DNA of 55,469 nucleotides from an uncultured Alphaproteobacteria bacterium (GTDB lineage: Bacteria > Pseudomonadota > Alphaproteobacteria > HIMB59 > GCA-002718135). Positions 767-44,766 of the stretch are shown in pieces; within the stretch, counting starts at the first letter, position 1; each line of letters starts with the position of its first letter. The notes under the pieces are model-generated. The model made no database searches, was not told the DNA's origin, and was given only the letters and a program-made list of their open reading frames with translations. A program made the translations under genes and the position numbers. Where the stretch lies: positions 1 through 55,469 of the forward strand of contig CACLBK010000004.1 of the NCBI GenBank assembly GCA_902605135.1, read 5' to 3'.

Positions 767-1354
767 TTAAAGAGAGCCTTTTGATGATGGTATGTTGTCT
801 TTTCTTCTGATATCTATTTCGACTGCAAATCTTAAACTTTTAGCAAAAGCTTTGAAGCATGATTCAATCATATGGTGATTGTTTTTTCCATACAAGTTTT
901 CAATATGTAAGTTACACTTTGATTCATTTGAAAAAGCTTTAAAAAATTCATGGAATAGTTCTGTATCCATTTCACCAATTTTTTTTAAACCAAGATTAAC
1001 ATTCCACACAAGCTCTGGTCTTCCACTTAAATCAATAACACATCTTGATAAACATTCATCCATTGGAACATATGAAAAACCATATCTATTTATTCCTTTC
1101 TTATCGTCCAACGCTTTATTTATAGCTAAAGCAATTGCGTAAGCTGTATCTTCAACTGAATGGTGAAGATCAACATCAGTATCTCCTTCACATTCTAAAT
1201 CTATATCTATCAAACTGTGATGAGACAATAATTCCAGCATGTGATCAAAAAAACCAATTTGTGTTGAAATTTTAGATTGACCAGTGCCATCTAAGTTAAC
1301 TTCACAACTTATTTTGGTTTCTTTAGTGTTTCTCTCAACTTTACCTTTTCGCAT
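767..1354 (-). CDS. hisB: Imidazoleglycerol-phosphate dehydratase
   Basis: [36 protein letters not shown] and C-terminal PSSKG motifs. Confidence 0.97.
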
Positions 1355-1398
1355 TTTTGCCTAATATCAGTGAAATCTGATTTATTCTAGGTAAATTA

Positions 1399-1426
1399 CT
1401 TGATAAAAATAATTAAATAGCCATCT
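1399..1426 (+). promoter_or_regulatory. Putative RpoH (sigma32) heat-shock promoter of hslVU
   Basis: CTTG-N17-GCCATCT lies just upstream of hslV and matches the alphaproteobacterial RpoH pattern. hslVU is a classic RpoH target. Confidence 0.6.
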
Positions 1427-1434
1427 TATGAAGA

Positions 1435-1983
1435 ATGAAAAAAAACATTATCAAATCAACAACTATTGTAGGAATAAGAAAAGATAACCTTGTTGTTATT
1501 GCTGGTGATGGTCAAGCTAGTCTTGGAAATACTGTAATGAAATCAAATGTTAAAAAAATAAGAAGACTAGGAACAGATGAATCTGTTATTTCTGGATTTG
1601 CAGGATCTACTGCTGATGCGTTTGCTTTATTTGAAAGATTAGAGGGAAAATTAGATCAGTATAAAAACCAACTTAAAAGAGCTTGTGTAGAATTAGCTAA
1701 AGATTGGAGAACCGATAGGTATCTAAGAAGATTAGAGGCGATGATGATAGTAGCTGACAAAGAAGTAAGTTTATTGTTATCAGGAACTGGTGATGTTATT
1801 GAGTCTGACGATGGAATACTAGCTATAGGCTCTGGTGGCCCTTATGCTAATAGCGCAGCAAAAGCTTTAATGAAAAATACAAAAATGGATGCGAAAGAAA
1901 TTGCTGTAGAATCATTAAATATAGCTGCTGATATTTGTATTTACACAAACCACAATATTATTTCAGAAACCATCGAGCTTTAA
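1435..1983 (+). CDS. hslV: ATP-dependent protease peptidase subunit HslV
   Basis: TTIVG catalytic Thr, [28 protein letters not shown] and AIGSGG motifs. Confidence 0.98.
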
Positions 1984-1984
1984 G

Positions 1985-3298
1985 ATGGAATCTAGTTTTA
2001 GTCCAAGAGAAATTGTTTCGGAATTAGATAAATTTATCATTGGTCAAAACAATGCAAAAAAAGCTGTTGCTGTTGCATTAAGAAATAGATGGAGAAGGAA
2101 ACAACTTGATGACTCTTTAAAAGAAGAAATTGTACCAAAGAATATTTTAATGGTTGGTCCTACAGGCTGTGGTAAAACAGAAATATCAAGAAGGTTGGCT
2201 AAGTTGGCAAATGCCCCTTTTATAAAAGTCGAGGCAACAAAATTTACAGAGGTAGGTTATGTTGGAAGAGATGTAGAGCAAATCATAAGAGATTTAGTCG
2301 AGATAAGTATTACGAAAACAAAAATACAAATGGGTCAAGAAGTAAAAGCAAAGGCGGAAAAAAATGCAGAAGAAAGAATTTTAGATGTTTTAGTTTCTAA
2401 AAGCTCAACTCCTGCCACACGTGACAATTTTAGAAAAAAACTTAGGTCAGGAGAATTAAATGATAAAGAAGTAGAGATACCCGTATCTGCCAATACTAAT
2501 TTTAGCTTACCAACAATGGATATACCTGGCATGCCTGGGTCTCAAATGGGGATGATAAATTTAGGGGATATTTTTGGTAAAGGTGTTGGTGGTCAAAAAA
2601 AAATGAAAAAGATGAGTATAAAGGATTCTCATGCGTATTTATTAGGAGAAGAAACCGATAAACTTTTGGATAAGGATAAAATAAACTCAAGAGCGTTAGA
2701 AGATGTAGAACAAAATGGAATTGTTTTCATAGATGAGATAGACAAGATTACCTCAAGGGCTGAAAGAAGTGGTGCAGATGTATCACGAGAGGGTGTTCAA
2801 AGAGATTTATTACCTCTTATAGAAGGCACATCAGTAACTACGAAGTACGGAGTTGTAAAAACAGATTATGTTTTGTTTATTGCCTCTGGGGCATTTCACT
2901 TATCTAAACCATCAGACATGCTGCCTGAGCTTCAAGGTAGATTGCCAATTAGAGTCGAGCTTGATAGTCTTAGTAAAAAAGATTTTATACTTATACTAAC
3001 TGAAACACAAAATAGTTTAATTAAACAATACCAAGGACTTCTTGGAACAGAAAAAGTTGATTTAAAATTTGAAGAAAGTGGTATTGAAACTATTGCCTCA
3101 CTCTCCACAGAGATAAATCAGAACGTAGAAAACATTGGCGCAAGAAGGCTGCATACTGTAATGGAGAAGTTACTTGAAGAAGTTAGTTATACTGCATCAG
3201 ATATAGGCCCTACAGAAATTACAATTAATAAAGAATACGTTGAAAATAGTTTAGGGGAGCTTATTAAAAGTCAGGACTTGTCAAAGTTTATATTGTAA
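1985..3298 (+). CDS. hslU: ATP-dependent protease ATPase subunit HslU
   Basis: [17 protein letters not shown] Walker [18 protein letters not shown] and NIGARRL motifs. Confidence 0.98.
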
Positions 3299-3327
3299 AG
3301 CTCATTAAATTTTTTAATAGTTGTAAA

Positions 3328-4662
3328 ATGAGCATTTTTAAAAGCATCAAATTTGAGTTACTTATTTTAGTATTAATTACATTAAGTATTTTTGCTTCTT
3401 TTGATATAGATCTTTTTTTTTATAGTTATTTTATAAACTTAAGTGATGTGGCAAATGGAGTTTTTCTAAAAGAATTTTTTTCAGAAATAACAAAACTTGG
3501 TAGTTCGTCATGGTATTTTTCTATTTCAATAATAGGTTTTGTTATTTTTTATATAAACAAAAGACTTCAAATCATAAAAACTAAATCAGCAAAAAATATT
3601 TCTAACTTTTTTATTTCTTCTTTTGTATATATTTTGACAGTTGGGATAATTACTCAAATTATAAAACATGTTGTGGGAAGGCCCAGACCAAATCATGCTG
3701 ATTTCGAAGACGTTTTTAGTTTTAAATATTTTACCATGGAATCAAATTTTCATTCTTTCCCCTCTGGACACTCTTCTACAATATTTATTGTTTGCTTTAT
3801 TTTGGTTTCTATTTTTCCAAAATTAAAATATTTTTTTTATTTTTTAGCTTCAATTATTGCTTTTAGTCGAGTTATTGTAAGCGCGCATTTTTTTACAGAT
3901 ATTGTTGCTGGGGCAATTTTAGCCTTAATATTATTTAAGATTTTAAATAAATTAATAGAAAGCAAATATAATAAATACAAATTATCAAATTTAATTCCTG
4001 AAAAAAATTCTGAGATTTTTTATTACATTCTAATTTTGTTTTTTAGTTGTGTGTTTGTGACTGCCGGCCCATCCTTAGATTTATATGTATCATCATTGTT
4101 TTATAAGGGTGCGTCACAATTTGAATTACAAAGTTTTGATTTAACTTCAATATTGTTTCGAGATATTTTATTACCACTAATACTTATTTATATTTTAATT
4201 TTACCAATAGTTGGGCGTTACTTTAAAATTGATAAAATTTTTTTTAATTATAAATTTTCTATTAAGGAAATAGTTTTGTTATGGATTTCTCAAATTATTA
4301 GTGTTTTAATATTTGTAAATCTTATACTAAAAAATTTTTGGGGTAGGGCAAGACCAAACGATATAGTTGAGTTGGATGGCAAAGAGTCTTTTTCCCCTTG
4401 GTTTGAAATAACCAATGCTTGTGAAACAAACTGCTCCTTTGTTTCAGGGGATGCTTCTGTTGGGTTTTCAATTATAGTTTTATATTTAATTACAAAAAAA
4501 ATAATTTTTCTCTATGGAAGCTTTGTTGCTGGTTTAGTACTTGGTTTAATTAGAATAATGGCTGGTGGTCATTTTTTAAGTGACATTTTTTTTGCTGGCT
4601 TTTTTATTGTAATATTAAATATAATTTTATTTGAATTTTATAAAAAATATTATGCTAAATAA
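3328..4662 (+). CDS. Membrane protein with two PAP2 phosphatase domains (LpxE-like plus LpxF-like)
   Basis: Domain 1 has KHVVGRPRP, SFPSGHS and SRVIVSAHFFTD. Domain 2 has KNFWGRARP, CSFVSGDAS and RIMAGGHFLSD. Many transmembrane segments. Confidence 0.85.
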   Translation: MSIFKSIKFELLILVLITLSIFASFDIDLFFYSYFINLSDVANGVFLKEFFSEITKLGSSSWYFSISIIGFVIFYINKRLQIIKTKSAKNISNFFISSFVYILTVGIITQIIKHVVGRPRPNHADFEDVFSFKYFTMESNFHSFPSGHSSTIFIVCFILVSIFPKLKYFFYFLASIIAFSRVIVSAHFFTDIVAGAILALILFKILNKLIESKYNKYKLSNLIPEKNSEIFYYILILFFSCVFVTAGPSLDLYVSSLFYKGASQFELQSFDLTSILFRDILLPLILIYILILPIVGRYFKIDKIFFNYKFSIKEIVLLWISQIISVLIFVNLILKNFWGRARPNDIVELDGKESFSPWFEITNACETNCSFVSGDASVGFSIIVLYLITKKIIFLYGSFVAGLVLGLIRIMAGGHFLSDIFFAGFFIVILNIILFEFYKKYYAK

Positions 4663-6037
4663 AATTCTATTGCCATCATTTATTGTTTTGCTTTTATTAA
4701 AAATAGGTGCCTTAAATTTTACTACTTTTAATTTGTTTGGTGATGAAGCGCAGTATTGGTTATGGTCAAAAGATATTGACTTTGGTTATTTTTCGAAACC
4801 CCCTTTTTTGTCCTGGATAATAAGAGTTTATACGGAAATATTAGGTAGTAGTTTTGTTTCATTAAAACTTCTCCCATCGTTTGTGTATTTATTAATTGCC
4901 TGGAGTATTTATAATCTTTTACTCAACTCTGGACTAAATAAAAAAGATTCATTTGCGGGTTGTTTAATTTTTTTGTTTATACCCGCTGTTTCTTTTTCAT
5001 CTTTTATAATTAGTACTGATCTTTTTTTATTATTATTTTGGACACTTTCACTTAATGAATTAATTAAGATCAAAAGTGAACAAGCTTTAAAAAATTTTAT
5101 ATTATTAGGTATTTTTCTGGGGTTAGCTTTTTTATCAAAATATGCAGCTATATATTTTGTAATTTGTTTATTTGTTCTAATTTTATTTGATAAAAGATTT
5201 AGAAAAATTTTTTTGGATAATTTATTAGGTTTTTGTCTTACTTTTTTATGTGTGTTTGTAATCATCTTACCAAATATTGTTTGGAACTTTAATAATGACT
5301 GGATAACACTTGAGCATACTTCGGATAATGCAAATTTTGGAAATATTGAAATAGATCTGATTAGGGGTTTAGAATTTTTGTTAATTCAGGTTTTAATGTT
5401 AGGCCCATTTATGTTTTTGGGTGGGTTATTTGGATTTAACAAATGGAACTATATTCAAAAAATTTTTTTAATATTTTCAATACCTATAATTCTAATTGTT
5501 TTGATAGAGGCAATTATTGTCAGAGCTAATGCAAATTGGGCTGCTCCAGCTTTAATTTCTTTGTTTGCTCTTTTATATATTAGAATGAATAATTCTTTTT
5601 TAAAGATGGTTAATTACATATTTAATTTTACTGTCTGTTTTGTTCTTTTTGTTATGATTGGAACAAGTTATCCCTCTAAAATTTTTGACCGAGTTAGTGG
5701 TATAAATGATTATGCTCTAAAAATTTACAGCAATTCTTCAAAAGATGTACTAAAAAATATAGTGGTTTCTGACCGACTTTTATTTTCAAGCCTTAATTTT
5801 GAATTAAGAGATAAGGATATTAATTTCTATATGCCACATAAAGAGGGAGATGAAATAACAAACCACTTTAAAATAGTGTCTCCTCTTAATAAAAATATAA
5901 ACGAAAACTTTACTTTAATTGGGAGCCCCTCAGATATAAATTACTTAGAGAATGAATATAAGGTGTTAAAAATAAATTCACCTGATCAAAAATTTACAAA
6001 AAGAGAACTTGATGTTTACGAGGTTGTGTTTGAATAA
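4652..6037 (+). CDS. ArnT/PMT-like (GT-C) membrane glycosyltransferase
   Basis: DEAQYWLWS, GYFSKPP, TD, LAFLSKY, PNIVWN and ANW motifs; polytopic. Likely start is the ATG at 4652, overlapping the upstream stop. Confidence 0.85.
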   Translation: MLNKILLPSFIVLLLLKIGALNFTTFNLFGDEAQYWLWSKDIDFGYFSKPPFLSWIIRVYTEILGSSFVSLKLLPSFVYLLIAWSIYNLLLNSGLNKKDSFAGCLIFLFIPAVSFSSFIISTDLFLLLFWTLSLNELIKIKSEQALKNFILLGIFLGLAFLSKYAAIYFVICLFVLILFDKRFRKIFLDNLLGFCLTFLCVFVIILPNIVWNFNNDWITLEHTSDNANFGNIEIDLIRGLEFLLIQVLMLGPFMFLGGLFGFNKWNYIQKIFLIFSIPIILIVLIEAIIVRANANWAAPALISLFALLYIRMNNSFLKMVNYIFNFTVCFVLFVMIGTSYPSKIFDRVSGINDYALKIYSNSSKDVLKNIVVSDRLLFSSLNFELRDKDINFYMPHKEGDEITNHFKIVSPLNKNINENFTLIGSPSDINYLENEYKVLKINSPDQKFTKRELDVYEVVFE

Positions 6038-6683
6038 ATTTCTAGTATTTTTTATTATATTTGTAATTAACACATCCTATGCAAATAATTTTAGCGCAGA
6101 ATATAAAGTCAGCACAACAGGAATAAAAATTGGTAATTTTAGTTGGTCATTAAATATTAATGATAATATTTATCAAACAGAAATTAATTTGAAAAATTCT
6201 GGCATTTTTTCACCTTTATATAAATTTGAAGGAAGCTATCTTTCAGTTGGGTTTATTGAAAACAACATATTTAAGACCCAAAATTATAAACAGTTTTGGA
6301 AAACTAAGAAGAAAACAAAAATAATTAAAATGTCTTTTGATGATTATTTAATTGAATTAAAACAAGAGCCTATAGAAGAAGAAATATCTAGAATAGACCT
6401 AGAAGACTTATATTTATATTTTGACCCAATTACCTCTTTTATAAATATTTTAAATGGAGAAAATGAGGCAAAAACAATTGATGGGAGAAGAATTTACACA
6501 CTTAAACAAAACGAAAGTGAGGATGGAAATATAATTTTAGAAATTGAAGACTATGTAAATATTTGGGCTGACCATAAAAGAAATGATTTAAAAAAAATAG
6601 AATTTTTAGTTAAAGATGATTTACTTCCATATGAAATTCTTATTCATTTCAAAAAAAGAGTGTTTAAGTTAGAAAGAATTTAA
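6009..6683 (+). CDS. Exported DUF3108-like protein
   Basis: Signal peptide ending SYA, YxV..GIKIG start, DP.T and DGRR motifs. Start codon uncertain. Confidence 0.5.
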   Translation: MMFTRLCLNKFLVFFIIFVINTSYANNFSAEYKVSTTGIKIGNFSWSLNINDNIYQTEINLKNSGIFSPLYKFEGSYLSVGFIENNIFKTQNYKQFWKTKKKTKIIKMSFDDYLIELKQEPIEEEISRIDLEDLYLYFDPITSFINILNGENEAKTIDGRRIYTLKQNESEDGNIILEIEDYVNIWADHKRNDLKKIEFLVKDDLLPYEILIHFKKRVFKLERI

Positions 6684-7219
6684 AACTTTTTTTTTCTTAA
6701 ATAGACAAAAAGAGCTCCGTCACCCCCATGTTCAAAACCCGCATCTTGATATGTTAGGATATATTTCTTAAGATAGTCTTCGTTTATCCAGTTTATTATT
6801 GAGTTTTTAATCTTTCCATAGAAAAGTTTAGGGTTTGTGTCTTCCTCATTTTGAATTTTTTTATGAACACCCTTTCCAGTAATTATAAGCAAACATCTTT
6901 TATTCTTGTTATAATTTTTTTTCACCTCACTTATAAATTTTTCATGTGCTTCGACTAAACCATACCCGTGAAGATCAATTTTTCTATCTATATTAATTTT
7001 TCCCCGCTTAAGCTCCTTATTAATCTCACCAAATGAAAATTTAAACTCTGAGCTACTAACTTTGTGTTCAGTTATTGTTTTTTTGCTGGTATTTTTAGTA
7101 TTAGTTTTTTTATCTAATTTTACATTTTTTTTATGAGTTGTTTCCACTTTAACTATGGATGTATCTTTTTTAAAAGGTTTTACACCTTTCATATTTTTTA
7201 GAAAAAAATCTTCTTCCAT
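6680..7219 (-). CDS. Smr/MutS2-domain protein
   Basis: IDLHG, IITGKG and HGGDGALFVYLR motifs. Confidence 0.92.
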   Translation of the reverse strand: MEEDFFLKNMKGVKPFKKDTSIVKVETTHKKNVKLDKKTNTKNTSKKTITEHKVSSSEFKFSFGEINKELKRGKINIDRKIDLHGYGLVEAHEKFISEVKKNYNKNKRCLLIITGKGVHKKIQNEEDTNPKLFYGKIKNSIINWINEDYLKKYILTYQDAGFEHGGDGALFVYLRKKKF

Positions 7220-7647
7220 TATTTTTTTGTATAGTTTTTAATTAAATTCTTTACTCTTTCAGGTGTTTGCAAATACCACAAACTGTCTAACATCTCTAGT
7301 GATGCCATGAATTTTTGTTTTTTGTTTAGAAAATAAAGCATTTTCTTAAATTTAGAGACGCCTTTTGCTCCAAGTTGAAAAATCATTTCTATTAATAATT
7401 CCTTTTCTGAAGCTGTGTGATCTTTTTTAAAAAATTTTATTTTGTATTGTTCGTGTGCTTTTTTAAAGTCTATCTCAAACAATTCTTCAAAATATTTTTT
7501 TTTAAATTTTTTAATATAATATTTTTTTTCTTTTTCTGTAATAAGATGACCATAACCAATAGTGTAATACCCTAATTGATCTTGATAAGGCTTGTCAGAA
7601 TAACCCTCGTTTTTTTTTATTCGGTCTTTGAGTTCTTTAAAGGACAA
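7219..7647 (-). CDS. Phage T4-type lysozyme (GH24 muramidase)
   Basis: E14-x8-D23-x5-T29 triad (EGYSDKPYQDQLGYYTIGYGHL), MIFQLG, and SLWYLQTPER resembling T4 SRWYNQTPNR; TTG start. Confidence 0.85.
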   Translation of the reverse strand: MSFKELKDRIKKNEGYSDKPYQDQLGYYTIGYGHLITEKEKKYYIKKFKKKYFEELFEIDFKKAHEQYKIKFFKKDHTASEKELLIEMIFQLGAKGVSKFKKMLYFLNKKQKFMASLEMLDSLWYLQTPERVKNLIKNYTKK

Positions 7648-31146: not shown

Positions 31147-32622
31147 ATGGGCAAAAAAGCAGTAGTTATAGGAAGTGGTTTTGGAGGCATTGCTATTAGC
31201 TTAAGACTAAAAAAATTAGGCTATGATACAACAATTATTGAAAAACTAGACGAGATTGGAGGAAGAGCAAGAGTTTTTGAAGTGAATGGTTTTAAACATG
31301 ATGCTGGACCAACAGTCATAACAGCACCATTTCTATTTGATGAACTTTTCAGTTTGTTTGGAAAAAAAAGAGAGAATTATTTGAATTTTGTTCCTCTTGA
31401 ACCATGGTATAGGTACTATTTTCATGATGGCAAAACATTTGATTATTGTTCTACAGTCGAAAAAACTAATATAGAAATTAGTAAATTTGATAAGAAAGAT
31501 ATAAAAGGATATAATAAACTTTTAAATCAATCAAAAAAAATATTTGATATAGGGTTTACACAATTAGCTGACAAACCATTTATTTCTTTTTTTAAAATGT
31601 TAGGAGTTATTCCTAATTTGATAATTTTGAGAAGTTATTTTACGGTATCTCAACTTGTAAATAGTTATCTAAAAAATCCATATCTTAGAAAAGCATTTTC
31701 AATTCATCCACTTTTAGTTGGAGGTGATCCACACACAACAACATCTATTTATGCTTTGATTCATTATTTAGAGAGAAAATGGGGAGTATTTTTTTGTATG
31801 GGTGGAACTGGTAAAATCGTATCTGAATTAAAACGATTAATGATTGATTGTGGTATTAAAATTAAAACGAACACAGAGGCAAAAGAATTTATTGTTGAAA
31901 ATAATAGGATAACAAAAATATTAACAAACAATGAAGAAATTTCCAATATAGATCTAGTTGTTTGTAATGCTGATCCACCCATGGTTTACTCCAAACTTTT
32001 AAAAAAACAAAATTTAAGTAGACCTGTATTAAAAGAAAAAAACTTATTGTATTCAATGGGACTTTTTGTTCTTTTCTTTGGTACGAAAAAACAATACCAT
32101 AAAGTAGCTCATCATACTATTTGGATGACCGAAAGATTTAAATCTTTACTTCATGATATATTTAAAAATAAAATTTTATCTGATGATTTTTCCTTGTACA
32201 TTCACAGGCCTACTGCAACAGACAAGTCATTTGCTCCAGAAGGTTGTGATAGTTTTTATGTTCTATGCCCAGTACCTAATTTACAAGGTAAAATTGATTG
32301 GAATGTTGAGTCAGAAAACCTTAAAAATAAGATTGTTAAAGAATTATCCCAGACAATTATGCCAGATTTGGAAAAGACTATTACAGATGTTTTTTGGATG
32401 AATCCTAAAGATTTTAAAAATGATTACAATTCTATGCACGGAGCTGGTTTTTCAATAGCTCCGATCTTTACACAGTCAGCTTGGTTTAGGTATCATAACA
32501 AAGATAAAAAAATTAAAAATCTATATTTTTCAGCGGCAGGTTCTCATCCAGGTGCAGGAATACCAGGAGTTCTTTCATCAGCTAAAGTTGTTGAAAACAT
32601 TATTAAAGCTGAATTAAAATAA
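31147..32622 (+). CDS. crtI: Phytoene desaturase
   Basis: GSGFGG, DAGPTVIT and HPGAGIPGVLSSAK motifs. Confidence 0.95.
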   Translation: MGKKAVVIGSGFGGIAISLRLKKLGYDTTIIEKLDEIGGRARVFEVNGFKHDAGPTVITAPFLFDELFSLFGKKRENYLNFVPLEPWYRYYFHDGKTFDYCSTVEKTNIEISKFDKKDIKGYNKLLNQSKKIFDIGFTQLADKPFISFFKMLGVIPNLIILRSYFTVSQLVNSYLKNPYLRKAFSIHPLLVGGDPHTTTSIYALIHYLERKWGVFFCMGGTGKIVSELKRLMIDCGIKIKTNTEAKEFIVENNRITKILTNNEEISNIDLVVCNADPPMVYSKLLKKQNLSRPVLKEKNLLYSMGLFVLFFGTKKQYHKVAHHTIWMTERFKSLLHDIFKNKILSDDFSLYIHRPTATDKSFAPEGCDSFYVLCPVPNLQGKIDWNVESENLKNKIVKELSQTIMPDLEKTITDVFWMNPKDFKNDYNSMHGAGFSIAPIFTQSAWFRYHNKDKKIKNLYFSAAGSHPGAGIPGVLSSAKVVENIIKAELK

Positions 32623-32624
32623 TA

Positions 32625-33506
32625 ATGATTGATTTAAAGCTCAATTCATCTGCTGACCTTAGAAAGGAAGGCAAAAGTTTTTATTGGGCAAGTTTTTTTT
32701 TACCAAAAAGTTATAAAGAAAATGCTGGTACTCTTTATTCAATTTGTAGATATTTTGATGACATTGCTGATAAATATAGTGAAGATCAAACTGTCTATCT
32801 TAAAAATTCAATTGAAGAAATAAGGACCAATAATAATAATAAAGTAAATATTTTTTTGAAAAAAAATAAAATTAACAATTTAATTTTTATAGATTTAATA
32901 GAGGGATTAATCTTAGATCAGAAAAAAATAAGAATTCAAAACAAGGAAGAACTTTTAAAATACTCCTATCATGTTGCTGGTACTGTTGGATTAATGATGT
33001 CTAAAATTATAGGAGTAAAACATGATAAGGCAGCACAATCCGCAATTGATTTAGGTATTGGAATGCAGCTAACAAATATAGCAAGAGATGTTTATGAAGA
33101 TTCTAAAATGAAAAGAATATATTTACCTGCCAATTGGATACCTGATATATCATTAAAAAATTTAGCTGATCCTTATAACAAAACTTCACAAAAAGATGAA
33201 AGAATATCAAATGCAATTCATGAAGTAATATGCCTTTCAGATAAGTTTTATGAAAATGGTTTTGCCGGTTTAAAATATATCCCGCTATCTACCAGATTAG
33301 GCATATTCATCGCGGCTAATATTTATAGAGGTATTGGCATTAAAATAAAATCCAATAAAAAAAAATATTTAAGAAAAAGAGTATATTTAAATTTATTCGA
33401 AAAATCTATAATTACATTTAAATCAATTTTACTTTTTATTTTTATCCCTTTTATGAAATATCAGTATCAAAAAATTAGAGATAATTTCCCAAATGAAAAT
33501 TTATAA
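32625..33506 (+). CDS. crtB: Phytoene synthase
   Basis: KSFYWAS, DDIAD, VAGTVG and QLTNIARDV motifs. Confidence 0.95.
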   Translation: MIDLKLNSSADLRKEGKSFYWASFFLPKSYKENAGTLYSICRYFDDIADKYSEDQTVYLKNSIEEIRTNNNNKVNIFLKKNKINNLIFIDLIEGLILDQKKIRIQNKEELLKYSYHVAGTVGLMMSKIIGVKHDKAAQSAIDLGIGMQLTNIARDVYEDSKMKRIYLPANWIPDISLKNLADPYNKTSQKDERISNAIHEVICLSDKFYENGFAGLKYIPLSTRLGIFIAANIYRGIGIKIKSNKKKYLRKRVYLNLFEKSIITFKSILLFIFIPFMKYQYQKIRDNFPNENL

Positions 33507-34575
33507 AGCTGCAATAATTGGTTTAGGCCCTAGTGGTTTAGCTGTAAATAAAATTCTTTACGGAGATAGCTATAACGAAATCATTGCATTTGAAAGTGAA
33601 GATATAAACAAAAGAGATAATATTTTTGGTTTTTGGTTAACAGATTGGATGAAGCCATTTGAAAAAATTATTGAAAAAAAATGGTACAAATGGACTATTG
33701 GTAACAAAAATACCCATGTAACACATACAAGTTTAGATAAACCTTATTGTGTCATTAGTTTTAAAACTTGGAAAAAATTTTGCTTAGAAACAAAAAATAA
33801 ATTAGAAATCATAAACAAACAAGTTGTCCAATATTTTCCTGAACAAAATTATTTTAAAATAATCACCACTGATGACAAAATATATTACGCTGAAAATATA
33901 TATGATTCACGATCAGCAAAAGAAAAAAAAGGTGAATTATTACAACATTTTTTTGGAGTTAATATTACCGTGGCAGATAATACTTTTAATGAAGATAAAT
34001 TAACCTTAATGCACTTTACTGAAGAAAATAATATTTTACATTTTATATACATCCTACCATTTAGTCACAACAAAGCGCTTGTTGAATCGACGGTCTTTTC
34101 AAAAGATGTTTTTCGCAGCTCCTGGTATAGAGAAAAAATAAATGATTACTTAAAGAAAAATAATATTAATAATTTTAAAGAAAATAGTTCAGAAAAAGGA
34201 GTAATACCAATGTTTTTTGCAGGGGAGAAAAGATCAGTTAATTCTAATATCTTCAATATTGGTATTAGAGGAGGTGCGTGCAAGCCTTCTACTGGATATG
34301 CCTTTTCATTTCTTATAAAACAAATTCAATTGTTAAAAAATTCAAAGAATAACCATGTAAATATCCATAATTTTTTAGAAAGAAAAATGGATAAAGTTTT
34401 TATTAATTTTTTAAAAAATAATAGAGAAGATGGAAGGTCATTTATAAAGCTCGCATCTAATCTAAATGGAAATGAATTTCAAAGTTTTATGATGGGTGAA
34501 TCAAATTTTCTAACTAAGTTAAAAATCATAAATAGTATGCCCAAGCTTCCTTTTATAAAAGAATTATTTAAATAA
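33493..34575 (+). CDS. crtY: Lycopene beta-cyclase
   Basis: IIGLGPSG, DSR, QHFFG, F.YILPF, E.GVIPM and PSTGY motifs. Confidence 0.85.
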   Translation: MKIYKAAIIGLGPSGLAVNKILYGDSYNEIIAFESEDINKRDNIFGFWLTDWMKPFEKIIEKKWYKWTIGNKNTHVTHTSLDKPYCVISFKTWKKFCLETKNKLEIINKQVVQYFPEQNYFKIITTDDKIYYAENIYDSRSAKEKKGELLQHFFGVNITVADNTFNEDKLTLMHFTEENNILHFIYILPFSHNKALVESTVFSKDVFRSSWYREKINDYLKKNNINNFKENSSEKGVIPMFFAGEKRSVNSNIFNIGIRGGACKPSTGYAFSFLIKQIQLLKNSKNNHVNIHNFLERKMDKVFINFLKNNREDGRSFIKLASNLNGNEFQSFMMGESNFLTKLKIINSMPKLPFIKELFK

Positions 34576-34576
34576 T

Positions 34577-35395
34577 ATGTTAGCCGACCTTACAATTCTA
34601 AATATTATTTCTTTTTTATTAATATTTTTCATTGGTCTTCCGCATGGTTCATTTGATGGTGCAGTTGCTTCCTTAGTAGGTTTTAGTAACAGAATTCAAT
34701 TTCTACAATTTATATTTTACTACCTAATTTTATTTTTTCTGGTCATTTTATTTTGGTTATATTTTCCTATTATTGCGCTAACGATTTTTATTATAATGAC
34801 TATTGCCCATTTTGGATTATGTGATTGGACAAATTTTAAAATAAATAAATATAAGTATTCTATAAGCTTTACTTATGGAATGACTATTATTTTTGGAATA
34901 ATATTTTTCAACGAGGATCAATCTTTTTTGATATTTGAATATCTGACAAATAATAATATTTACTCAATCCAAAAATATTTTTTCATCCCATATTTTTTAA
35001 CATTATTATCTATAATATATTTTATTTATCTTTCCTTTTTCGAAAAGAAATTACGAAAAGGAATTATTGAAATTCTATTTCTTTTACTAATTTTTTATTT
35101 TTTTGATCCATTGCTAAGTTTTGCAATATATTTCTGTTTTTTTCACACTTACAAACATTTAAAACATCTGATTAAAAATATTTATTTAAATTTAAAAAAT
35201 AAATACTTTGTTATTTACTCAACAATAATTTTTACAGTAATTTCTTGGATTGGAGGTTTAGGAATTGTTTACTATTTAGTTCAGAATTTATCATTATATG
35301 AGTCGATATTAAAAGTAATTTTCATTGGACTTGCTGCTTTAACGCTTCCTCATATGTTACTTGTTGATATTGTCTACAGAAGAAGATTTAAATAA
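34577..35395 (+). CDS. blh: Beta-carotene 15,15'-dioxygenase (Brp/Blh)
   Basis: GLPHG, HFG..D, YFCFFH and LTLPHM motifs (four His ligands); polytopic. Confidence 0.93.
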   Translation: MLADLTILNIISFLLIFFIGLPHGSFDGAVASLVGFSNRIQFLQFIFYYLILFFLVILFWLYFPIIALTIFIIMTIAHFGLCDWTNFKINKYKYSISFTYGMTIIFGIIFFNEDQSFLIFEYLTNNNIYSIQKYFFIPYFLTLLSIIYFIYLSFFEKKLRKGIIEILFLLLIFYFFDPLLSFAIYFCFFHTYKHLKHLIKNIYLNLKNKYFVIYSTIIFTVISWIGGLGIVYYLVQNLSLYESILKVIFIGLAALTLPHMLLVDIVYRRRFK

Positions 35396-35738: not shown

Positions 35739-36566
35739 GTGCTCAAGAATATTTTTTTGGCTTCATATCCTAAATCTGGGAATACTTGGATGAGATCTTT
35801 AGTTGGAAGCCTTTATAATTTTGATAAAGAGTTTAGTCTAAATACACTAAAGTTAATACCACTATTATCAATTAAAAAAAACTTTGATGAATTTGAAAAT
35901 AAAATCTATTCTGACAATAATGTTTTAAATCTTGATTGGGTGTCCCAAAATATCATTGAATGCCAAAAAATACTAAATAAAAAGTCAAATCATTTAAATA
36001 TATTCAAAACCCATAGTGTTAAACATAAAAAATATACAAACGAAACTGTAAACGCAGGTTTCATTTACATTATAAGAGACCCTAGGGATGTAGTTGTTTC
36101 TTACAAAAATTTTAGTGGAAAAAGCTTTGATAAAGTTATTAATGAGCTTCTTTTTGAAGAAAAAAATATAATTAATTCAAACGGTGTTCCTGAACTACTT
36201 TCTACTTGGGAGTTAAATGTTTTATCATGGTTAAATTATAATACTGTACCCAGATTGATTATTAGGTATGAAGATGTAAAACTAAATATAAAACAAGTAG
36301 TTATAAAAATTATAGAATTTTTGAATAAAACACATAGAATAAAACTCAACCTAAGTGATGCAGACATGGATCAAATAATTAAAAATACTAATTTTAATAA
36401 TCTCCAAAAATTAGAAGAAAAATATGGTTTTGATGAATCCCCAAAAAATTCAAGATTTTTTCGTTTTGGAACCTCAAATCAATGGAAAGATATTTTATCG
36501 AAAACACAGGTTCAGCTAATAGAAAATAATTTACATACGTTAATGAAGCAATTTAATTATATTTAA
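35739..36566 (+). CDS. PAPS-dependent sulfotransferase
   Basis: LASYPKSGNTW (5'-PSB loop), IIRDPRDVVVS (3'-PB) and FFRFG...W motifs; GTG start. Confidence 0.9.
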   Translation: MLKNIFLASYPKSGNTWMRSLVGSLYNFDKEFSLNTLKLIPLLSIKKNFDEFENKIYSDNNVLNLDWVSQNIIECQKILNKKSNHLNIFKTHSVKHKKYTNETVNAGFIYIIRDPRDVVVSYKNFSGKSFDKVINELLFEEKNIINSNGVPELLSTWELNVLSWLNYNTVPRLIIRYEDVKLNIKQVVIKIIEFLNKTHRIKLNLSDADMDQIIKNTNFNNLQKLEEKYGFDESPKNSRFFRFGTSNQWKDILSKTQVQLIENNLHTLMKQFNYI

Positions 36567-36573
36567 GGAATAA

Positions 36574-36663
36574 TGGTGTTTAGGTTGAGGTCATAAATAA
36601 CGAACGAGTTCTTCCGCTGCCAGTTTTCAAGACCGGTGCTTTCAACCGCTCAGCCATCCTCAC
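36574..36663 (-). pseudogene. Degenerate tRNA-Ser(TGA)
   Basis: D arm, anticodon arm CCGGT-CTTGAAA-ACTGG and variable arm are intact. The T arm and 3' acceptor strand are mutated. CCA falls at the expected position 90. Confidence 0.8.
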
Positions 36664-36688
36664 TTTAGGGAAACATTGGGGGACATTT
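36664..36688 (+). repeat. Short imperfect tandem repeat abutting the pseudo-tRNA
   Basis: TAGGGAAACAT followed by TGGGGGACAT; a related copy TTTGGGATACACT lies at 35557-35569 after tRNA-Gly. Confidence 0.5.
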
Positions 36689-36884
36689 CATTTACAAAAA
36701 TTAAAAATGTTATAGTTTAATTAAGAAAAGATTGAATGCTTGAATCCCTTTGCTTTTTTCAACGTTTTAGGTTTCTTAAATGCAAACAATAAATCCTAAA
36801 AAGTTACTGATCAACGATAGGCCAAGGTAAATATTTAAATAATAGATTAATTAAGAAATAAATTTTTAATTTAAAACTAATAAT

Positions 36885-37658
36885 TTAACCATGATAAACG
36901 TCAAAGTAACTGTCTTTATAATTGAATATAATAGGTCTTAGATACAAACAATTAGAATTAAAAATTATTGAGTTCATATTAGATACCTCTAGTATAAGTG
37001 ACTGTCTTTTACCTAAATAAAATTTTTTATTATCAATATCAATATTAATGATATTTTCTGTAGGGTTAGCAAAAAATAATTCAGTCTTTGTAAAATCTTT
37101 AAAATAATTCTGTATTTTATATTTTTGTCTATTTAAGCTTGTTTTTATAATATCATGTGATTTTAATTTATTATGTAATTCAATATTATCAGACTTAGCA
37201 TAGGTATTACCATGAACAAATGAATATAAATTATTGTTTTTTGAATATCCAACATAACACCTGTTAGAAATTATGGTCTCCCTGTTAACCTCACTATTAG
37301 TTTTGTGAAATATATAAAAGACTCCATAATCCTCTATACCATCAAGCAATTTACTGTTGATTTCTAATGTGTTTGAATAATTCAGCTCCTTAATTTCTAA
37401 TTTTTTAATTAATATATTTTCTTTGTTATAAAAGCTTAAAAAAACAGTTGAGTCTTTTATTCCATAAAATAATCCTAGAATATCTGAGTATTTGAAAATT
37501 GTTTTAAAACCTTGATCAGTTCTCCAACAAAAGGAATCACTTATGCTTTTTGGTGTATTAATTTCATTTAGTGAAACTTTTAATTGTCTAAACTTAATTA
37601 AGTTTCTAAAAAAAACTATTATATTTGCATTAAATATTTTTTTAACTAATGATTTCAC
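36885..37658 (-). CDS. Hypothetical protein with two His-Gly motifs
   Basis: 257-aa ORF coupled to the upstream ORF; YSFVHGN and C-terminal FDVYHG. Confidence 0.75.
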   Translation of the reverse strand: MKSLVKKIFNANIIVFFRNLIKFRQLKVSLNEINTPKSISDSFCWRTDQGFKTIFKYSDILGLFYGIKDSTVFLSFYNKENILIKKLEIKELNYSNTLEINSKLLDGIEDYGVFYIFHKTNSEVNRETIISNRCYVGYSKNNNLYSFVHGNTYAKSDNIELHNKLKSHDIIKTSLNRQKYKIQNYFKDFTKTELFFANPTENIINIDIDNKKFYLGKRQSLILEVSNMNSIIFNSNCLYLRPIIFNYKDSYFDVYHG

Positions 37659-38403
37659 TTATCTCTCTTTTTAATTTTGATATTATTTTAAATTTGTCAT
37701 TACTCATTATATACTCATGCGGAGGATGAGTGTGCTCAAATGACATGTGCATATTGTCAATTGAAACAAAAAGTGGCGCACCTAGATATTTGTCAGTGAT
37801 TAAGTATATCTCAGGTTTGATTAGTTCATTATTAACATTAATTGAATTTGTATAGTTTGTTCTTAGTTCAATTTTCTCTACAATTTTTTTCTTTTCAATG
37901 TTTACAAAAAATAGGTTAAATTTCTTTTGAATTGGTTCTTCATAGATGTTTTTTATAAAAATAATATTTTCTTTTGCATTTTTATTAAGTAGTACTGATA
38001 CTGGACTAAGTATGCTTCCTTTTTTTAAAACCATATCAAATGGGTACTCTGACTGAAAAGATGAAAATCCCCCATTTCTAATACTGATTTTTAAATTTGA
38101 CCTATAAGCAGGAAAAGTGTCAGTAAAAGTATTAAGTTTTTTTAATTTATATTTATCAAATTTCTCTATTTCATTTTCTTGAGCTAAAAAAAAAATATTT
38201 TCATTATCTGACAATACTTCATTAATTGAATAAAATTCTTCATTTATTACATTATCATTTAATATTTCAAGATTCCACTTTGAGTCTTTAATTGCCACCT
38301 TGCACAAAAGATGTTTTTCACTATTTTTGCCATCATTTTTAAATCTTGCAATTGTTAGATTAGAAAATATATTTTCAGTTTTTATTCCAAAAAAGAAATT
38401 CAT
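37642..38403 (-). CDS. Hypothetical protein (EHTHPPHE motif)
   Basis: 253-aa ORF; SSFQSEYPF and SFEHTHPPHEY motifs. Confidence 0.75.
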   Translation of the reverse strand: MNFFFGIKTENIFSNLTIARFKNDGKNSEKHLLCKVAIKDSKWNLEILNDNVINEEFYSINEVLSDNENIFFLAQENEIEKFDKYKLKKLNTFTDTFPAYRSNLKISIRNGGFSSFQSEYPFDMVLKKGSILSPVSVLLNKNAKENIIFIKNIYEEPIQKKFNLFFVNIEKKKIVEKIELRTNYTNSINVNNELIKPEIYLITDKYLGAPLFVSIDNMHMSFEHTHPPHEYIMSNDKFKIISKLKREISEIIS

Positions 38404-38459
38404 ATTTAAGTATATTTAAAATAGTTTTAAAATAATTAATATATATATTTTAACTATAA

Positions 38460-39845
38460 TTAGTTTTTTATTATATCATCAAAAAATTCATTAAAGTCTA
38501 TTTTATTTTTGTTCAAATCAAGTGTTTTTCCGAAACTTTTCAAATTATAAGTATATAAATGTTTAGATACTTTTCTTGCTTGAATATTAGGCCAAATAGT
38601 TTCACTGTAGACCTCAAAAGACGGGTTAACACATAATTGTACAAAACTAATTTTTTTTTCTAAAAGTTCAATAACTAATGCTGACGGTCCAATCACAATA
38701 GAGTTTCTTAGTCCTTCATTATTTTTAAATTTATTTTTATGTTTCATTAAAATTTTATTTATTTTGGCCATCATTTTAATATGATGAGGATTATCTATTT
38801 GAGAAGGGTGTATTTTTACAGTTAGTTTTAATAAAGAAAAATCTTTAGCTATATTAAGATAACTATCTATTGTGTTTAAAATTATTTTTTCAGAGAAAAT
38901 TATATATGGAAGGTAAACGCAATTTAAGATTTCATCATTTGATTTATTTGTAAACTTTTGAGATGATATTTTTCTTACCTTATTAAGGTCCCAATTTAAG
39001 AATGTTTGTAAATAAAACAATTGATCATCTCCATTTACCAATAATACATCAGGAGAACCAACTCTATATAAAAGACTTGTGGGAATAGGTGGCAAAGAAC
39101 TATGATATCCAACTGTTACTATATTATTATATTTCTTCTTAAATAGAAATGTAACATTATGAAGAAAAGGTTGACCCTCATATGGAAAAGCAGCTAATTT
39201 AAAGTTCCCACCAATTATTTCATCAAAAAAAAATTCTGCAAAGTATCTTGAAAAAAAACTATCTACAAATATTTCATGTTTAATACTTTTTATTGAATAT
39301 CTATTTTGTTTTAAAATTTTTAAAATTGTTTTAATTAAAAATACAAAGCTGTATTTTTTATTTTTATTTTTATATAATATTCTTACATTGTGATTTAAAT
39401 TTTTTGGGAATTTATTATCAACAGAAGTTAAAAACCATAATATCGAAGTACAATTACCTGAATTTAAATTAAAGTTATTATCAAAAAAGTTTCCATCTTC
39501 ATCAAAGCTTGATGCAGTACAGTTTGAGATTATAACCTTGTTATATAATGAATTTTCTTGCCTTCTATTTGCCAAAGAATAATCATTATATTTAGCTATA
39601 GATAGTAAATTTTTTGATAATAAGAATAAATATTTTGGAAGATATAAGTACCCTGATGAAAATAATTTTAATTTAGCATAACCCATATTTGGAAACCAAC
39701 TGCTAAAAAAACAAAGAGAACTTGTTCCTGAGTTAATTAGTTTTGCTTCGGTTTTATTTACATAGTCTTTAGCAAATTTTAATAATTTTACTTGATTATT
39801 TCCAATATCCATTCTTTCATATTTTAATCTAAAGTATTTAGCCAA
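38460..39845 (-). CDS. Hypothetical glycan-locus protein, possibly GT-B/sialyltransferase-like
   Basis: 461-aa ORF; YEGQP, GYHS, PDVLLVNG and VKIHP (the K-x-H-P motif seen in capsule and sialyl transferases). Confidence 0.5.
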   Translation of the reverse strand: MAKYFRLKYERMDIGNNQVKLLKFAKDYVNKTEAKLINSGTSSLCFFSSWFPNMGYAKLKLFSSGYLYLPKYLFLLSKNLLSIAKYNDYSLANRRQENSLYNKVIISNCTASSFDEDGNFFDNNFNLNSGNCTSILWFLTSVDNKFPKNLNHNVRILYKNKNKKYSFVFLIKTILKILKQNRYSIKSIKHEIFVDSFFSRYFAEFFFDEIIGGNFKLAAFPYEGQPFLHNVTFLFKKKYNNIVTVGYHSSLPPIPTSLLYRVGSPDVLLVNGDDQLFYLQTFLNWDLNKVRKISSQKFTNKSNDEILNCVYLPYIIFSEKIILNTIDSYLNIAKDFSLLKLTVKIHPSQIDNPHHIKMMAKINKILMKHKNKFKNNEGLRNSIVIGPSALVIELLEKKISFVQLCVNPSFEVYSETIWPNIQARKVSKHLYTYNLKSFGKTLDLNKNKIDFNEFFDDIIKN

Positions 39846-40750
39846 TTATTAAAATTGGTTACACCATCAACTAGTTTTGTACTTGGTTTAAACTTTAATT
39901 TATTCTTGATTTTGTTAATGTTTGCTGATGATCCTTTAAAGTCACCTGGTGTTCCTGGTAATTCATTTATAACAATTTTTTTGTTTAATACTTTTGATAT
40001 TACTTTCAATAAATCTGAAATTTTGGTTGCTTTTCCTGACCCAACATTAAAGATTTGGTTAAAATGCTTTGTATCCTTAGCACACATTTCCCAGGCATCT
40101 AGAACATCTTCTACATAAACCAAATCTCTAAATCGATCCAAACTTCCTTTTATATTTACAACATCTTGATTTCTGGCCATATTTAAAAAAATACTAACCA
40201 TTCCCAAATCTGGATTTTTTGGATTTTGGCCAGGTCCATAAACATTAAACATTCTAAGAATATTCCATTTTATATTAAAAATATTACAACATATCTGAAC
40301 ATATTTTTCTGCAGTATATTTTGAAAGTGCATAAGGAGATTTAGGATCACACTCACTAATTTCGGACAATTTACCAGACTTATCGATAGTCTCTTTATAA
40401 ACATTAAATGTAGACGCATAAATTATTTTTTTAACTTTGTTTTCTTTACTCCAATTTATTAAATTATAAGTACTAACAATGTTAGACTCATAATCTAAAT
40501 CTGTTCTTTTAAATGATACTGCTTGTGACGGCTGCCCTGCACAATGAAGTAACACGTCAATGTTTTTAATCTTAATATTCATCAGTTTTTTTTTATTAGA
40601 GAGATCAATTAAATAAGTTTTTATATTTTTATTATTTTTGAAATTTTTATTTTTTTTTATATCAAAAATTAATATTTTATTTTTTTTTGCTAGTCTTTTT
40701 GCTAGTTTACTTCCTATGAAGCCAGATCCACCAGTTATTAATATTCTCAT
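39824..40750 (-). CDS. NAD-dependent epimerase/dehydratase
   Basis: ITGGSGFIG, YALSK, FNVYGPGQ and RDLVYV motifs. Confidence 0.93.
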   Translation of the reverse strand: MRILITGGSGFIGSKLAKRLAKKNKILIFDIKKNKNFKNNKNIKTYLIDLSNKKKLMNIKIKNIDVLLHCAGQPSQAVSFKRTDLDYESNIVSTYNLINWSKENKVKKIIYASTFNVYKETIDKSGKLSEISECDPKSPYALSKYTAEKYVQICCNIFNIKWNILRMFNVYGPGQNPKNPDLGMVSIFLNMARNQDVVNIKGSLDRFRDLVYVEDVLDAWEMCAKDTKHFNQIFNVGSGKATKISDLLKVISKVLNKKIVINELPGTPGDFKGSSANINKIKNKLKFKPSTKLVDGVTNFNNWLNTLD

Positions 40751-41817
40751 TATTTTTTACTTAAAAATATCTTTATTCTTTTAATTAAGATATTCATAAT
40801 ATTTTTTGGTCCACAAGTAATTAAAATATAATTTTCTAATGGAGATTTGTAATTACCTTTAACATATATTTTATTTTTAAGTAAATAATTATATAATTTT
40901 GAAGCAGTTTCTTTTGTTTCAAGACCCACAAGTAAATAATTACCTTTTCTTCCATTAACTTTTAATCCAAGCTCAATTAATTTTTTCTTAGTATACTCTC
41001 TTCCTTCGATGACTTTATTAATATATTTTTCTACCTTTCTAAAATTTTCCATTAAATATATTGCTACTTCATCTGTAAAAAGATTACTTTCATAAGCTAA
41101 CCTTGTTTTAGACAGAAATTCTATATTTTTAGAGTCTGAAACTAAGAAGCCTAATCTAATAGATGGTACCCCAAATCCTTTAGAAAATGTTCTAAGTATA
41201 ATTAAGTTTTTGTGTTTTTTTACAAGAGGTAAAGAGGACTTTATACCAAAATGATAGTATGCTTCATCTATAACAATATATGCTCCATTTTTTTTTGCAT
41301 ATTCACACAATGATGATATTTCTTTTAATGTTAAATTATCTTCAATTGGTTGATTTGGGTTAGGAAGAAATAAAATTTTTGGTTTTCTTTTAAGAAATTT
41401 AAATAATTTTTTTCTATCTAATCTGAGAGATTTCGAATCATATTGAATAATTTCTAAATTGGTATCATAAATATTACTATATACTTCATACATTGCGTAC
41501 GAGGGGCCAATTAAACCAATTAAAGTTCCAGGCTTTGTTAATACTTCCCAAATTGTCTTAATAGCCCCATCTATTCCTGAGGTAACCAATAATTTTTCTT
41601 CATCTATATCAAAAAATTCTGATATTTTTTCATATATTTTTGAGTTGTCTGGATAAGAACCTAACTGATATTTTTTTAGCTTCGAGAATATTTTAATGTA
41701 TATGTTTTTTTCCCAGTCTTGAACTCTTTCATTTCTATTTAATCTTAATCCATTAATTAAGTCTCTGTTTTCAGGAATTCTTAATCTTTTGATTTTTGTT
41801 AATTTTTTTATATCCAT
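40750..41817 (-). CDS. HisC/CobD-like PLP-dependent class I/II aminotransferase
   Basis: LNRNE, NPNQP, IDEAY and RTFSKGFG..SIRLG (PLP Lys) motifs. Confidence 0.88.
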   Translation of the reverse strand: MDIKKLTKIKRLRIPENRDLINGLRLNRNERVQDWEKNIYIKIFSKLKKYQLGSYPDNSKIYEKISEFFDIDEEKLLVTSGIDGAIKTIWEVLTKPGTLIGLIGPSYAMYEVYSNIYDTNLEIIQYDSKSLRLDRKKLFKFLKRKPKILFLPNPNQPIEDNLTLKEISSLCEYAKKNGAYIVIDEAYYHFGIKSSLPLVKKHKNLIILRTFSKGFGVPSIRLGFLVSDSKNIEFLSKTRLAYESNLFTDEVAIYLMENFRKVEKYINKVIEGREYTKKKLIELGLKVNGRKGNYLLVGLETKETASKLYNYLLKNKIYVKGNYKSPLENYILITCGPKNIMNILIKRIKIFLSKK

Positions 41818-42226
41818 ATAAAGAAAGTAGCTTTTTAAATAAAAATTAGGTTTATTTCCAGTAGGAATTAATTATTTTACCTTATTGATGCTAATCTAAC
41901 AATTACCATGCAATAATGATAAATAATATAAATTTTAATAATATCTATGAAATATAATTCTTATGAAGAGTTGTTGTGCTATAAAAAGACATCTGAGAAA
42001 AATTATGTATAGCTTCATATTTCAGAAGTTTATAAATTACCTACTTTTCTAGCGTATATAATCTTAGCTTAAAAGACATTAAATTCGATTATTTTAATAT
42101 TTTAAACGATGATTTTGATATTTTGAAATTTTTTGGAGAGAAGAACCAGAATACATATTAGTAAGTTTTTGGATAGAGGCTTGTAAAATGGATGGTTTAT
42201 GAATCAATTTTATATAAGATAAAATT

Positions 42227-43057: not shown

Positions 43058-43141
43058 ATCATATAAGTCTTGCGCTCGTTAATATTTTAATACTAAAAGC
43101 CTTAATTAAAAATCACTATCTTAATAATTTAATTTTGAATA

Positions 43142-43861: not shown

Positions 43862-43988
43862 ATGATTATATAAAATAAAATTATCAAAATTAATTTTAAG
43901 ATAAATAAATGAAATTTGAAAAATTGAAAGTGAAGTCTAAAATAAATGTTTTATATATTAAGTATTTTAATAGTTTATAATAATAATA

Positions 43989-44753: not shown

Positions 44754-44766
44754 TATTTTTTTTAAC

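Follow-up and report, generated by a model that had tools for sequence, protein, structure and literature searches.

A two-domain PAP2 phosphatase gene overlapping a GT-C gene

The sequence analysed here, hereafter called the window, is a stretch of 55,469 nucleotides (nt) comprising positions 1 to 55,469 of contig CACLBK010000004.1, from an uncultured member of the Alphaproteobacteria (GTDB lineage HIMB59; GCA-002718135). The source assembly (GCA_902605135.1) is 1.16 Mb in length and 68% complete, and G+C content across the window is 21-34%. On the plus strand, the window carries a run of hslV, hslU, an open reading frame (ORF) for a protein of 444 amino acids (aa), an ORF for a GT-C glycosyltransferase and a DUF3108 ORF, with minute gaps or overlaps between them. 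Our subject is the 444-aa protein and its GT-C partner. Because near-identical proteins carry the NCBI name 'Pelagibacteraceae bacterium', we regard the source as an organism of the SAR11 type. The module to which they belong is real and conserved, and it is probably functional.

The 444-aa ORF (3328..4662) encodes approximately 12 predicted transmembrane helices and matches the Pfam PAP2 family (PF01569) in two stretches (E = 1.4e-36, 125.5 bits versus a gathering threshold of 27.2). These are the sole PAP2 domains in the window's genome, where a genome-wide search scored them at 91 and 46.3 bits. We compared both halves with the tripartite PAP2 motif KX6RP / PSGH / SRX5HX3D, as quoted in PMC6581854. 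The N-terminal half (residues 1-222; 3328..3993; best Pfam stretch at residues 98-208) carries the motif in full as K113-x6-R120-P121 (C1, 3664..3690), P145-S-G-H148 (C2, 3760..3771) and S180-R-x5-H187-x3-D191 (C3, 3865..3900), and a histidine occupies the position of H148 in 65 of 65 representatives of this N-type domain. The C-terminal half (residues 223-444; 3994..4659), which we term F-type, departs from the motif by having V372-S-G-D375 for PSGH, and hence no histidine, and I408-R for SR. It retains K335-x6-R342-P343 (C1, 4330..4356) and R409-x5-H415-x3-D419 (C3, 4549..4584), and its C2 motif forms the end of the sequence C365-x-x-N-C369-S-F-V-S-G-D375 (4420..4452).

The GT-C gene ends at 6037 and begins at an ATG at 4652 or, less likely, at a TTG at 4631. 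With the ATG start, the two genes share 11 nt, and the phosphatase stop codon, at 4660-4662, falls within the overlap. The original prediction, made from the letters of the window, had described two PAP2 motif sets of different types in one ORF, of which the first is canonical and the second lacks the C2 histidine and is preceded by a cysteine pair (C365 and C369), together with an overlapping GT-C gene. All of these features are present as described.

An AlphaFold2 model of the protein (31 sequences) has a mean predicted local distance difference test score of 88 and a predicted template modelling score of 0.86. Read from the order of helices and from loops rich in lysine and arginine, the model suggests a 6+6 helix arrangement in which the two sets of motifs face the same side of the membrane; in the predicted topology these loops, at residues 78-92, 209-226 and 300-311, fall on the opposite side. 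We take the motif side to be periplasmic, an orientation carried over from known PAP2 enzymes. A Foldseek comparison of the model with the Protein Data Bank (PDB) returned generic PAP2 matches only, each with an E value above 1e-3. Bacillus subtilis PgpB (YodM, PDB 5JKI) headed these matches as the nearest solved structure (target-normalised TM-score 0.68), although it is a single-domain phosphatidylglycerol phosphate (PGP) phosphatase that matches only one half of the model.

The C-terminal half belongs to an LpxF-like domain family

Residues 232-435 align to positions 8-213 of the 217 positions of the NCBIfam model for LpxF, the lipid A 4'-phosphatase (NF045633; E = 2.6e-30), whereas the next NCBIfam family on the protein reaches only E = 1.8e-6, and on the other half. 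A match to this model at E = 1e-10 or better is present in 76 of 301 alphaproteobacterial genomes that we sampled. A 75%-identical protein carries the label 'lipid A 4'-phosphatase' from the Joint Genome Institute (JGI). Among solved structures, none is close to the F-type profile, the best match being at 3e-5.

Among 118 cluster representatives of the domain type, the sequence C-x-x-N-C-S-F-[VP]-[SA]-G is almost invariant, and both cysteines are present in all 118. The final residue of C2 is histidine in 55 representatives, aspartate in 47 and glutamate in 16, and therefore the absence of histidine from the window's protein is ordinary variation within the family, for which N-C-S-F-V-S-G-[H/D/E] is a hallmark. 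The catalytic residues are kept in 116-118 of the representatives (K, R and P of C1 in all 118; R, H and D of C3 each in 116). This hallmark and the nearly full-length alignment bear out the earlier description of the C-terminal half as LpxF-like.

We also inspected 30 F-type loci in other Alphaproteobacteria. A GT-C gene is adjacent in 10 of these, and genes for PagL, for an LpxL-type acyltransferase and for small ArnC-like GT2 enzymes occur nearby. The C-terminal half thus resembles the LpxF proteins of Rhizobium and Francisella in its PAP2 fold, full-length model alignment and periplasmic active-site motifs. By analogy, it may also resemble them in being paired with a GT-C enzyme that would use the freed 4'-hydroxyl, since LpxF followed by RgtD is a scheme described in passages of PMC9393093. 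It differs in its low score against the LpxF model, in being joined, as the C-terminal part, to a second domain in a 12-helix protein and in having aspartate rather than histidine at C2.

Genomic context links the N-terminal half to the F-type domain

Across the 301 genomes (one of which, G268, is unpublished), we scored N-type domains at a threshold of at least 90 bits. Both domain types occur in 56 genomes, only the N-type in 21 and only the F-type in 20, and 204 genomes have neither; the odds ratio is 27, uncorrected for relatedness.

Stand-alone N-type genes were surveyed in 20 fetched regions, in 15 of which the ORF was identified. Thirteen of the 15 directly abut a GT-C gene that is different from, and longer than, the one in the window (537-660 aa; at most 30 bits against a profile of the short GT-C). 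The other two loci comprise one 730-aa fusion and one gene with only a GT2 gene alongside, and small GT2 genes are found near three of the 15. The composition of these clusters matches the rgtE-lpxE-rgtF run of Oligotropha carboxidovorans, which has consecutive locus tags in Table 4 of PMC7663294, where the lipid A of this species is given galacturonic acid at both ends. Regarding the 730-aa protein (genome G116, locus L189, 4007-6196, minus strand), its C-terminal N-type PAP2 domain follows approximately 590 residues that have no Pfam match, and it may be a fusion of a GT-C enzyme and a phosphatase.

The N-terminal half shares with LpxE (Rhizobium leguminosarum; Aquifex aeolicus, PDB 6EBU) a canonical tripartite motif, a profile match to 6EBU at 3e-10 and relatives located in GT2/GT-C/PAP2 clusters like rgtE-lpxE-rgtF. 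It differs in its lack of a specific LpxE signal, in being fused to an LpxF-like domain and in having, unlike its stand-alone relatives, no RgtF-type GT-C partner. Known LpxE enzymes are themselves only about 14-17% identical to each other, according to passages of PMC6581854.

The partner transferase and its probable sugar donor

The GT-C protein matches Pfam PMT_2 (PF13231; E = 4.2e-22, 79.5 bits versus a gathering threshold of 26.1) and falls well below the cutoff of the ArnT equivalog model NF009784 (28.6 bits, E = 5.4e-7; cutoff 567 bits). It is homologous (E = 1e-32 to 2e-54) to GT-C proteins encoded beside single-domain LpxF-like genes at seven other alphaproteobacterial loci. An alignment of the family to which this GT-C belongs, scanned against the genomes of named species, yielded 80 loci, mostly in Alphaproteobacteria, including Rhodospirillales, Hyphomicrobiales, metagenome-assembled genomes of Rickettsiales, Magnetospirillum, Caenispirillum and Roseospirillum, and also in Sulfuricurvum and Thiothrix. 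An F-type domain is encoded beside the GT-C gene in 42 of the 80 (34 with an F-type gene, four with an F-type gene plus a separate N-type gene and four with an F-N fusion), and the remaining 38 have neither PAP2 type within about 4 kb.

Alphaproteobacteria thus have two phosphatase/transferase pairs, namely a long GT-C with an N-type domain and a short GT-C with an F-type domain. By analogy with the scheme of LpxE/RgtF plus LpxF/RgtD that passages of PMC9393093 summarise, the long pair would correspond to LpxE/RgtF, acting at position 1 of lipid A, and the short pair to LpxF/RgtD, acting at position 4'. The window's genome and two well-assembled relatives each have a single PMT_2 gene, which is the short one. 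Because only this GT-C, of the family that pairs with F-type domains, has been kept, a sugar is predicted at the 4' position only, leaving the 1-position free. The earlier proposal that the partner adds a sugar is therefore consistent with the identity of the gene as a GT-C transferase, and its scope is narrowed to one end of the molecule.

A candidate for the enzyme that makes the sugar donor is encoded at the end of another contig (C47) of the window's genome. This ArnC-like GT2 protein is 42% identical (E = 3e-44) to GT2 proteins encoded beside LpxF-like genes elsewhere, and its full-length ortholog in a related genome (G033) has ArnC as its best NCBIfam match (E = 1.2e-26). The G033 gene (locus L082, 870-1989, minus strand) is preceded by a GT4 gene and followed by a gene for a 95-aa protein consisting only of a LAB_N (Lipid A Biosynthesis N-terminal) domain. 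A gene of the UDP-sugar dehydrogenase family is present as well. Overall, the system is similar to those of RgtD, RgtF and ArnT with RgtE or ArnC in the PMT_2 fold family of the GT-C protein, in the ArnC-like GT2 encoded in the genome and in the pairing with a putative lipid A phosphatase. It differs in having one GT-C, where bacteria with galacturonic acid at both ends have two, and in falling short of the ArnT equivalog model.

Distribution and origin of the fusion

The two-domain protein is not a product of chance, because it is present in 48 of the 52 genomes of the order, including 21 of the 22 with a completeness of at least 90%. Within this order, the fusion is an ancestral trait. The gene order hslU-phosphatase-GT-C is found at 24 of 24 loci in the window's family and at none of six in the sister family, where a genome that is 99% complete (G013) again has the fusion as its sole PAP2 protein.

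In G013, a gene for a 492-aa polytopic protein (locus L040, 7684-9162, minus strand) lies directly upstream of the fused phosphatase gene with a 4-nt overlap, and its product has no Pfam or NCBIfam match. Genes for two sugar-nucleotide enzymes of the short-chain dehydrogenase/reductase (SDR) type are located downstream of the phosphatase gene. By BLAST, Pfam and NCBIfam alike, the polytopic protein (P0290) shows no resemblance to the GT-C of the window. A language-model atlas places P0290 near ArnT-family clusters with a score of 0.98, which we regard only as a lead.

Fusions are also found far from the window's lineage. Among 58 distant database proteins of at least 380 aa, 21 have the order N-F, 33 the order F-N and four another arrangement; three of the 10 clusters of distant fused proteins have names, all of them generic. 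Nine non-SAR11 genomes of the 301 encode fused proteins, and in seven of the sampled genomes the N-type and F-type genes flank a GT-C gene within about 2.5 kb (N-GT-C-F). These unfused clusters and the F-N fusions of other Alphaproteobacteria comprise the same three domain families as the window's module, which differs in having N before F, in its gene following hslU and in its compact size (444 aa versus 435-685 aa). On a tree of 122 F-type domains, of which 50 stand alone, 36 come from N-F proteins and 36 from F-N proteins, the fused states need at least 10 and seven changes, which suggests, on a tree whose branches are often weak, that fusion arose at least twice, once for each domain order.

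The authors of the original prediction knew of no described fusion of LpxE and LpxF. In agreement with this, we found none in the literature, supplements aside, and matches for 'LpxEF' refer to LpxE of F. novicida. The fusion is not unique, however, as both domain orders are common in databases. What is new here is the fused architecture, whereas the module is of a known kind.

Proposed mechanism and alternative explanations

We propose that the three co-oriented genes form a module that would remodel the head groups of lipid A on the periplasmic side of the inner membrane. We envision the 444-aa protein as a 12-helix fusion of two PAP2 phosphatases, both with periplasmic active sites, wherein the LpxF-like C-terminal domain would remove the 4'-phosphate and the N-terminal domain the 1-phosphate. 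The product of the overlapping GT-C gene would then place a sugar on the freed 4'-hydroxyl, drawing on a polyprenyl-phosphate-sugar donor made by the ArnC/RgtE-like GT2 encoded elsewhere in the genome. The 1-position would stay unsubstituted because there is no second GT-C, and the end product would be lipid A that lacks phosphate. We consider a module for phosphate-free lipid A to be the best explanation of the locus, with a probability of approximately 0.6, where the substrate, the position assigned to each domain and the 4' glycosylation are what we infer.

Several observations weigh against this proposal. LpxC is encoded in the window's genome, whereas LpxK, LpxB and WaaA were not found in its own assembly, a gap that we attribute to the 68% completeness. 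These three proteins are encoded in five, eight and five, respectively, of 12 incomplete genomes of the same genus and in seven, seven and eight of eight sister-family genomes. Thus, although two of the genes whose absence from the genome had been named as a refutation (lpxK and lpxB) are missing from this assembly, the lineage has the pathway. In two genera of the window's family (genomes G042 and G044), the interval from hslU to the GT-C gene holds just an F-type gene of 226-227 aa, and these genomes have no further PAP2 domain; therefore, the F-type domain and the GT-C form the core of the module and the N-domain can be lost. Upstream of the G044 gene, an apparent remnant of the N-terminal half (a 60-residue match with two stops) overlaps the 3' end of hslU, and we rejected it as an alignment extension. 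A PMT_2 GT-C is present in none of three sister-family genomes. To these points should be added that the F-type domain tree comes from a quick search and has many weak branches, and that the co-occurrence statistic is uncorrected for relatedness.

Further difficulties concern the N-terminal half. Judged by profile scores, it is a generic PAP2 domain and not a specifically LpxE-like one. Its best NCBIfam match is a model for undecaprenyl-diphosphate (C55-PP) phosphatase, NF008813 (E = 1.8e-6, 28 bits, below the cutoff of 229 bits), and further named matches are PhoC, LpxE and PgpB, with the LpxE model NF007159 at E = 1.6e-3 and 18.2 bits (cutoff 177 bits). Among solved structures, B. subtilis PgpB is closest to the N-type profile (8e-13) and Aquifex LpxE is further off. 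The initial description of this half as LpxE-like is consequently not borne out by sequence and finds its support in context only, namely the co-occurrence with F-type domains and the stand-alone copies beside GT-C genes, as in rgtE-lpxE-rgtF.

These scores raise an alternative in which only the C-terminal half acts on lipid A, while the N-terminal half is a fused housekeeping lipid phosphatase for C55-PP recycling or PGP, and the 1-phosphate is kept. In addition to the undecaprenyl-diphosphate phosphatase matches (E = 2.4e-9 in G013) and the similarity to PgpB, this explanation could draw on the two genera that manage without the N-domain and on the multifunctional nature of LpxE-type enzymes, which dephosphorylate C55-PP and PGP too, according to passages of PMC6581854. 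Furthermore, no PgpA was found in the complete genome G013, and a second role for the N-terminal half in that organism is conceivable. However, BacA and PgpA are both encoded in the window's genome, and therefore the housekeeping roles of PAP2 enzymes are already covered there. Moreover, 224 of the 301 genomes lack the N-type subfamily, which tracks the F-type domain and became fused to it in either order, and its stand-alone copies lie beside GT-C genes in 13 of 15 loci. We therefore rate a pure housekeeping role as unlikely, even though it is the strongest competitor of the proposed lipid A module.

The naming of the C-terminal half also calls for caution. It scores 106 bits against the LpxF model, whose equivalog cutoff is 400 bits, and this cutoff is reached in none of the 301 genomes. 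Because the half itself and all of these genomes fall below the cutoff, the name LpxF is an extrapolation from a narrow model. The substrate could then be something other than lipid A, such as another phosphorylated glycolipid or a polyprenyl-linked glycan intermediate, given that this exact clade is known from sequence only and that the fused gene of the sister family is accompanied by the polytopic protein without a family match and the two sugar-nucleotide SDR enzymes. We find this prospect quite improbable, since LpxF is the best and the only strong named match of the C-terminal half, the JGI label assigns a relative to lipid A, and genes for PagL, LpxL-type acyltransferases and ArnC-like proteins lie beside F-type genes elsewhere. 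The idea that one domain has lost its catalytic activity and acts purely as a scaffold, for which the C-terminal half with VSGD at C2 and isoleucine before the C3 arginine would be the candidate, deserves very little credence, because the nucleophile His415, Asp419, Arg409 and Lys335/Arg342 are kept and near-invariant in the family, aspartate or glutamate occupies the C2 position in 63 of the 118 representatives, and Aquifex LpxE, which passages of PMC6581854 describe as crystallised and active, likewise has aspartate there.

Implications for marine lipid A

If the proposed lipid A module is extended to its broadest form, the most abundant clade of surface-ocean bacteria would constitutively make lipid A without phosphate, with one 12-helix enzyme removing the 1- and 4'-phosphates and a sugar replacing only the latter. 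We offer this as a tentative possibility that has somewhat less than an even chance of being correct. The location of the genes in a conserved core region would fit constitutive use. If true, a large share of marine lipopolysaccharide is free of phosphorus, and its charge, and probably its detection by innate immune receptors and endotoxin assays, differ from those of the enterobacterial textbook form. We found no paper on the structure of SAR11 lipid A or on its dephosphorylation in the literature, supplements aside, and the module provides a concrete prediction for it, namely that both phosphates are absent, with a sugar at position 4' and position 1 left free.

The fused protein is also a natural single polypeptide that may remove both lipid A phosphates, and sorting these genes into two phosphatase/GT-C pairs helps to annotate many that are now labelled 'PAP2 family' or 'glycosyltransferase family 39'. 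According to the original prediction, the module may spare phosphorus in an oligotroph; by a rough, uncomputed estimate, the phosphates of lipid A make up only a small share of the phosphorus in a cell.

Neighbouring genes and other features of the window

The upstream neighbour hslU (1985..3298, plus strand) is conserved and ends 29 nt before the phosphatase gene, and we treat it as context only. Downstream, the co-oriented DUF3108 ORF (6009..6683), whose product has a signal-peptide-like N-terminus, overlaps the end of the GT-C gene. A DUF3108 ORF is also found 3' of the GT-C gene in G042 and G044, which lack the N-domain, and in 14 close relatives of the window's genus, and it may belong to the same operon as the GT-C gene. 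Convergent to the module are minus-strand genes for an Smr-domain protein and a phage-lysozyme-family protein (6680-7647).

A promoter scan of positions 1300-7300 gave 33 sites versus 32.1 in shuffled sequence, which is no excess, and all seven terminator-like sites in this region lie within ORFs, such that transcription units cannot be derived from the scan. Four metatranscriptome studies of seawater contain contigs of at least 90% similarity that span parts of the phosphatase and GT-C genes, and some of these contigs bridge the junction between the two (X1, 4540-4866; X5, 4478-4833). As assembled contigs in which carry-over of DNA is possible, they prove neither transcription nor a single transcript, and the stretches that they leave uncovered are uninformative.

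Further along the window, a plus-strand run for retinal biosynthesis (31147-35392) encodes a crtI-like desaturase of the amine-oxidase type, phytoene synthase, lycopene cyclase and beta-carotene 15,15'-dioxygenase. It is followed by a stretch of low G+C content (0.23-0.26; 35739-45369) with genes for a sulfotransferase, an NAD epimerase, an aminotransferase, an FkbM methyltransferase and a 2-oxoglutarate-Fe(II) oxygenase, along with five ORFs that have no Pfam match; this stretch looks like a variable surface-glycan island. Finally, purH (45586-47086, minus strand) is apparently divided between two ORFs with an 8-nt overlap. One part (46493-47086) carries the MGS domain and AICARFT positions 1-59 and the other (45586-46500) carries AICARFT positions 76-310, and the split could reflect a frameshift, an error in sequencing or a true division of the gene.

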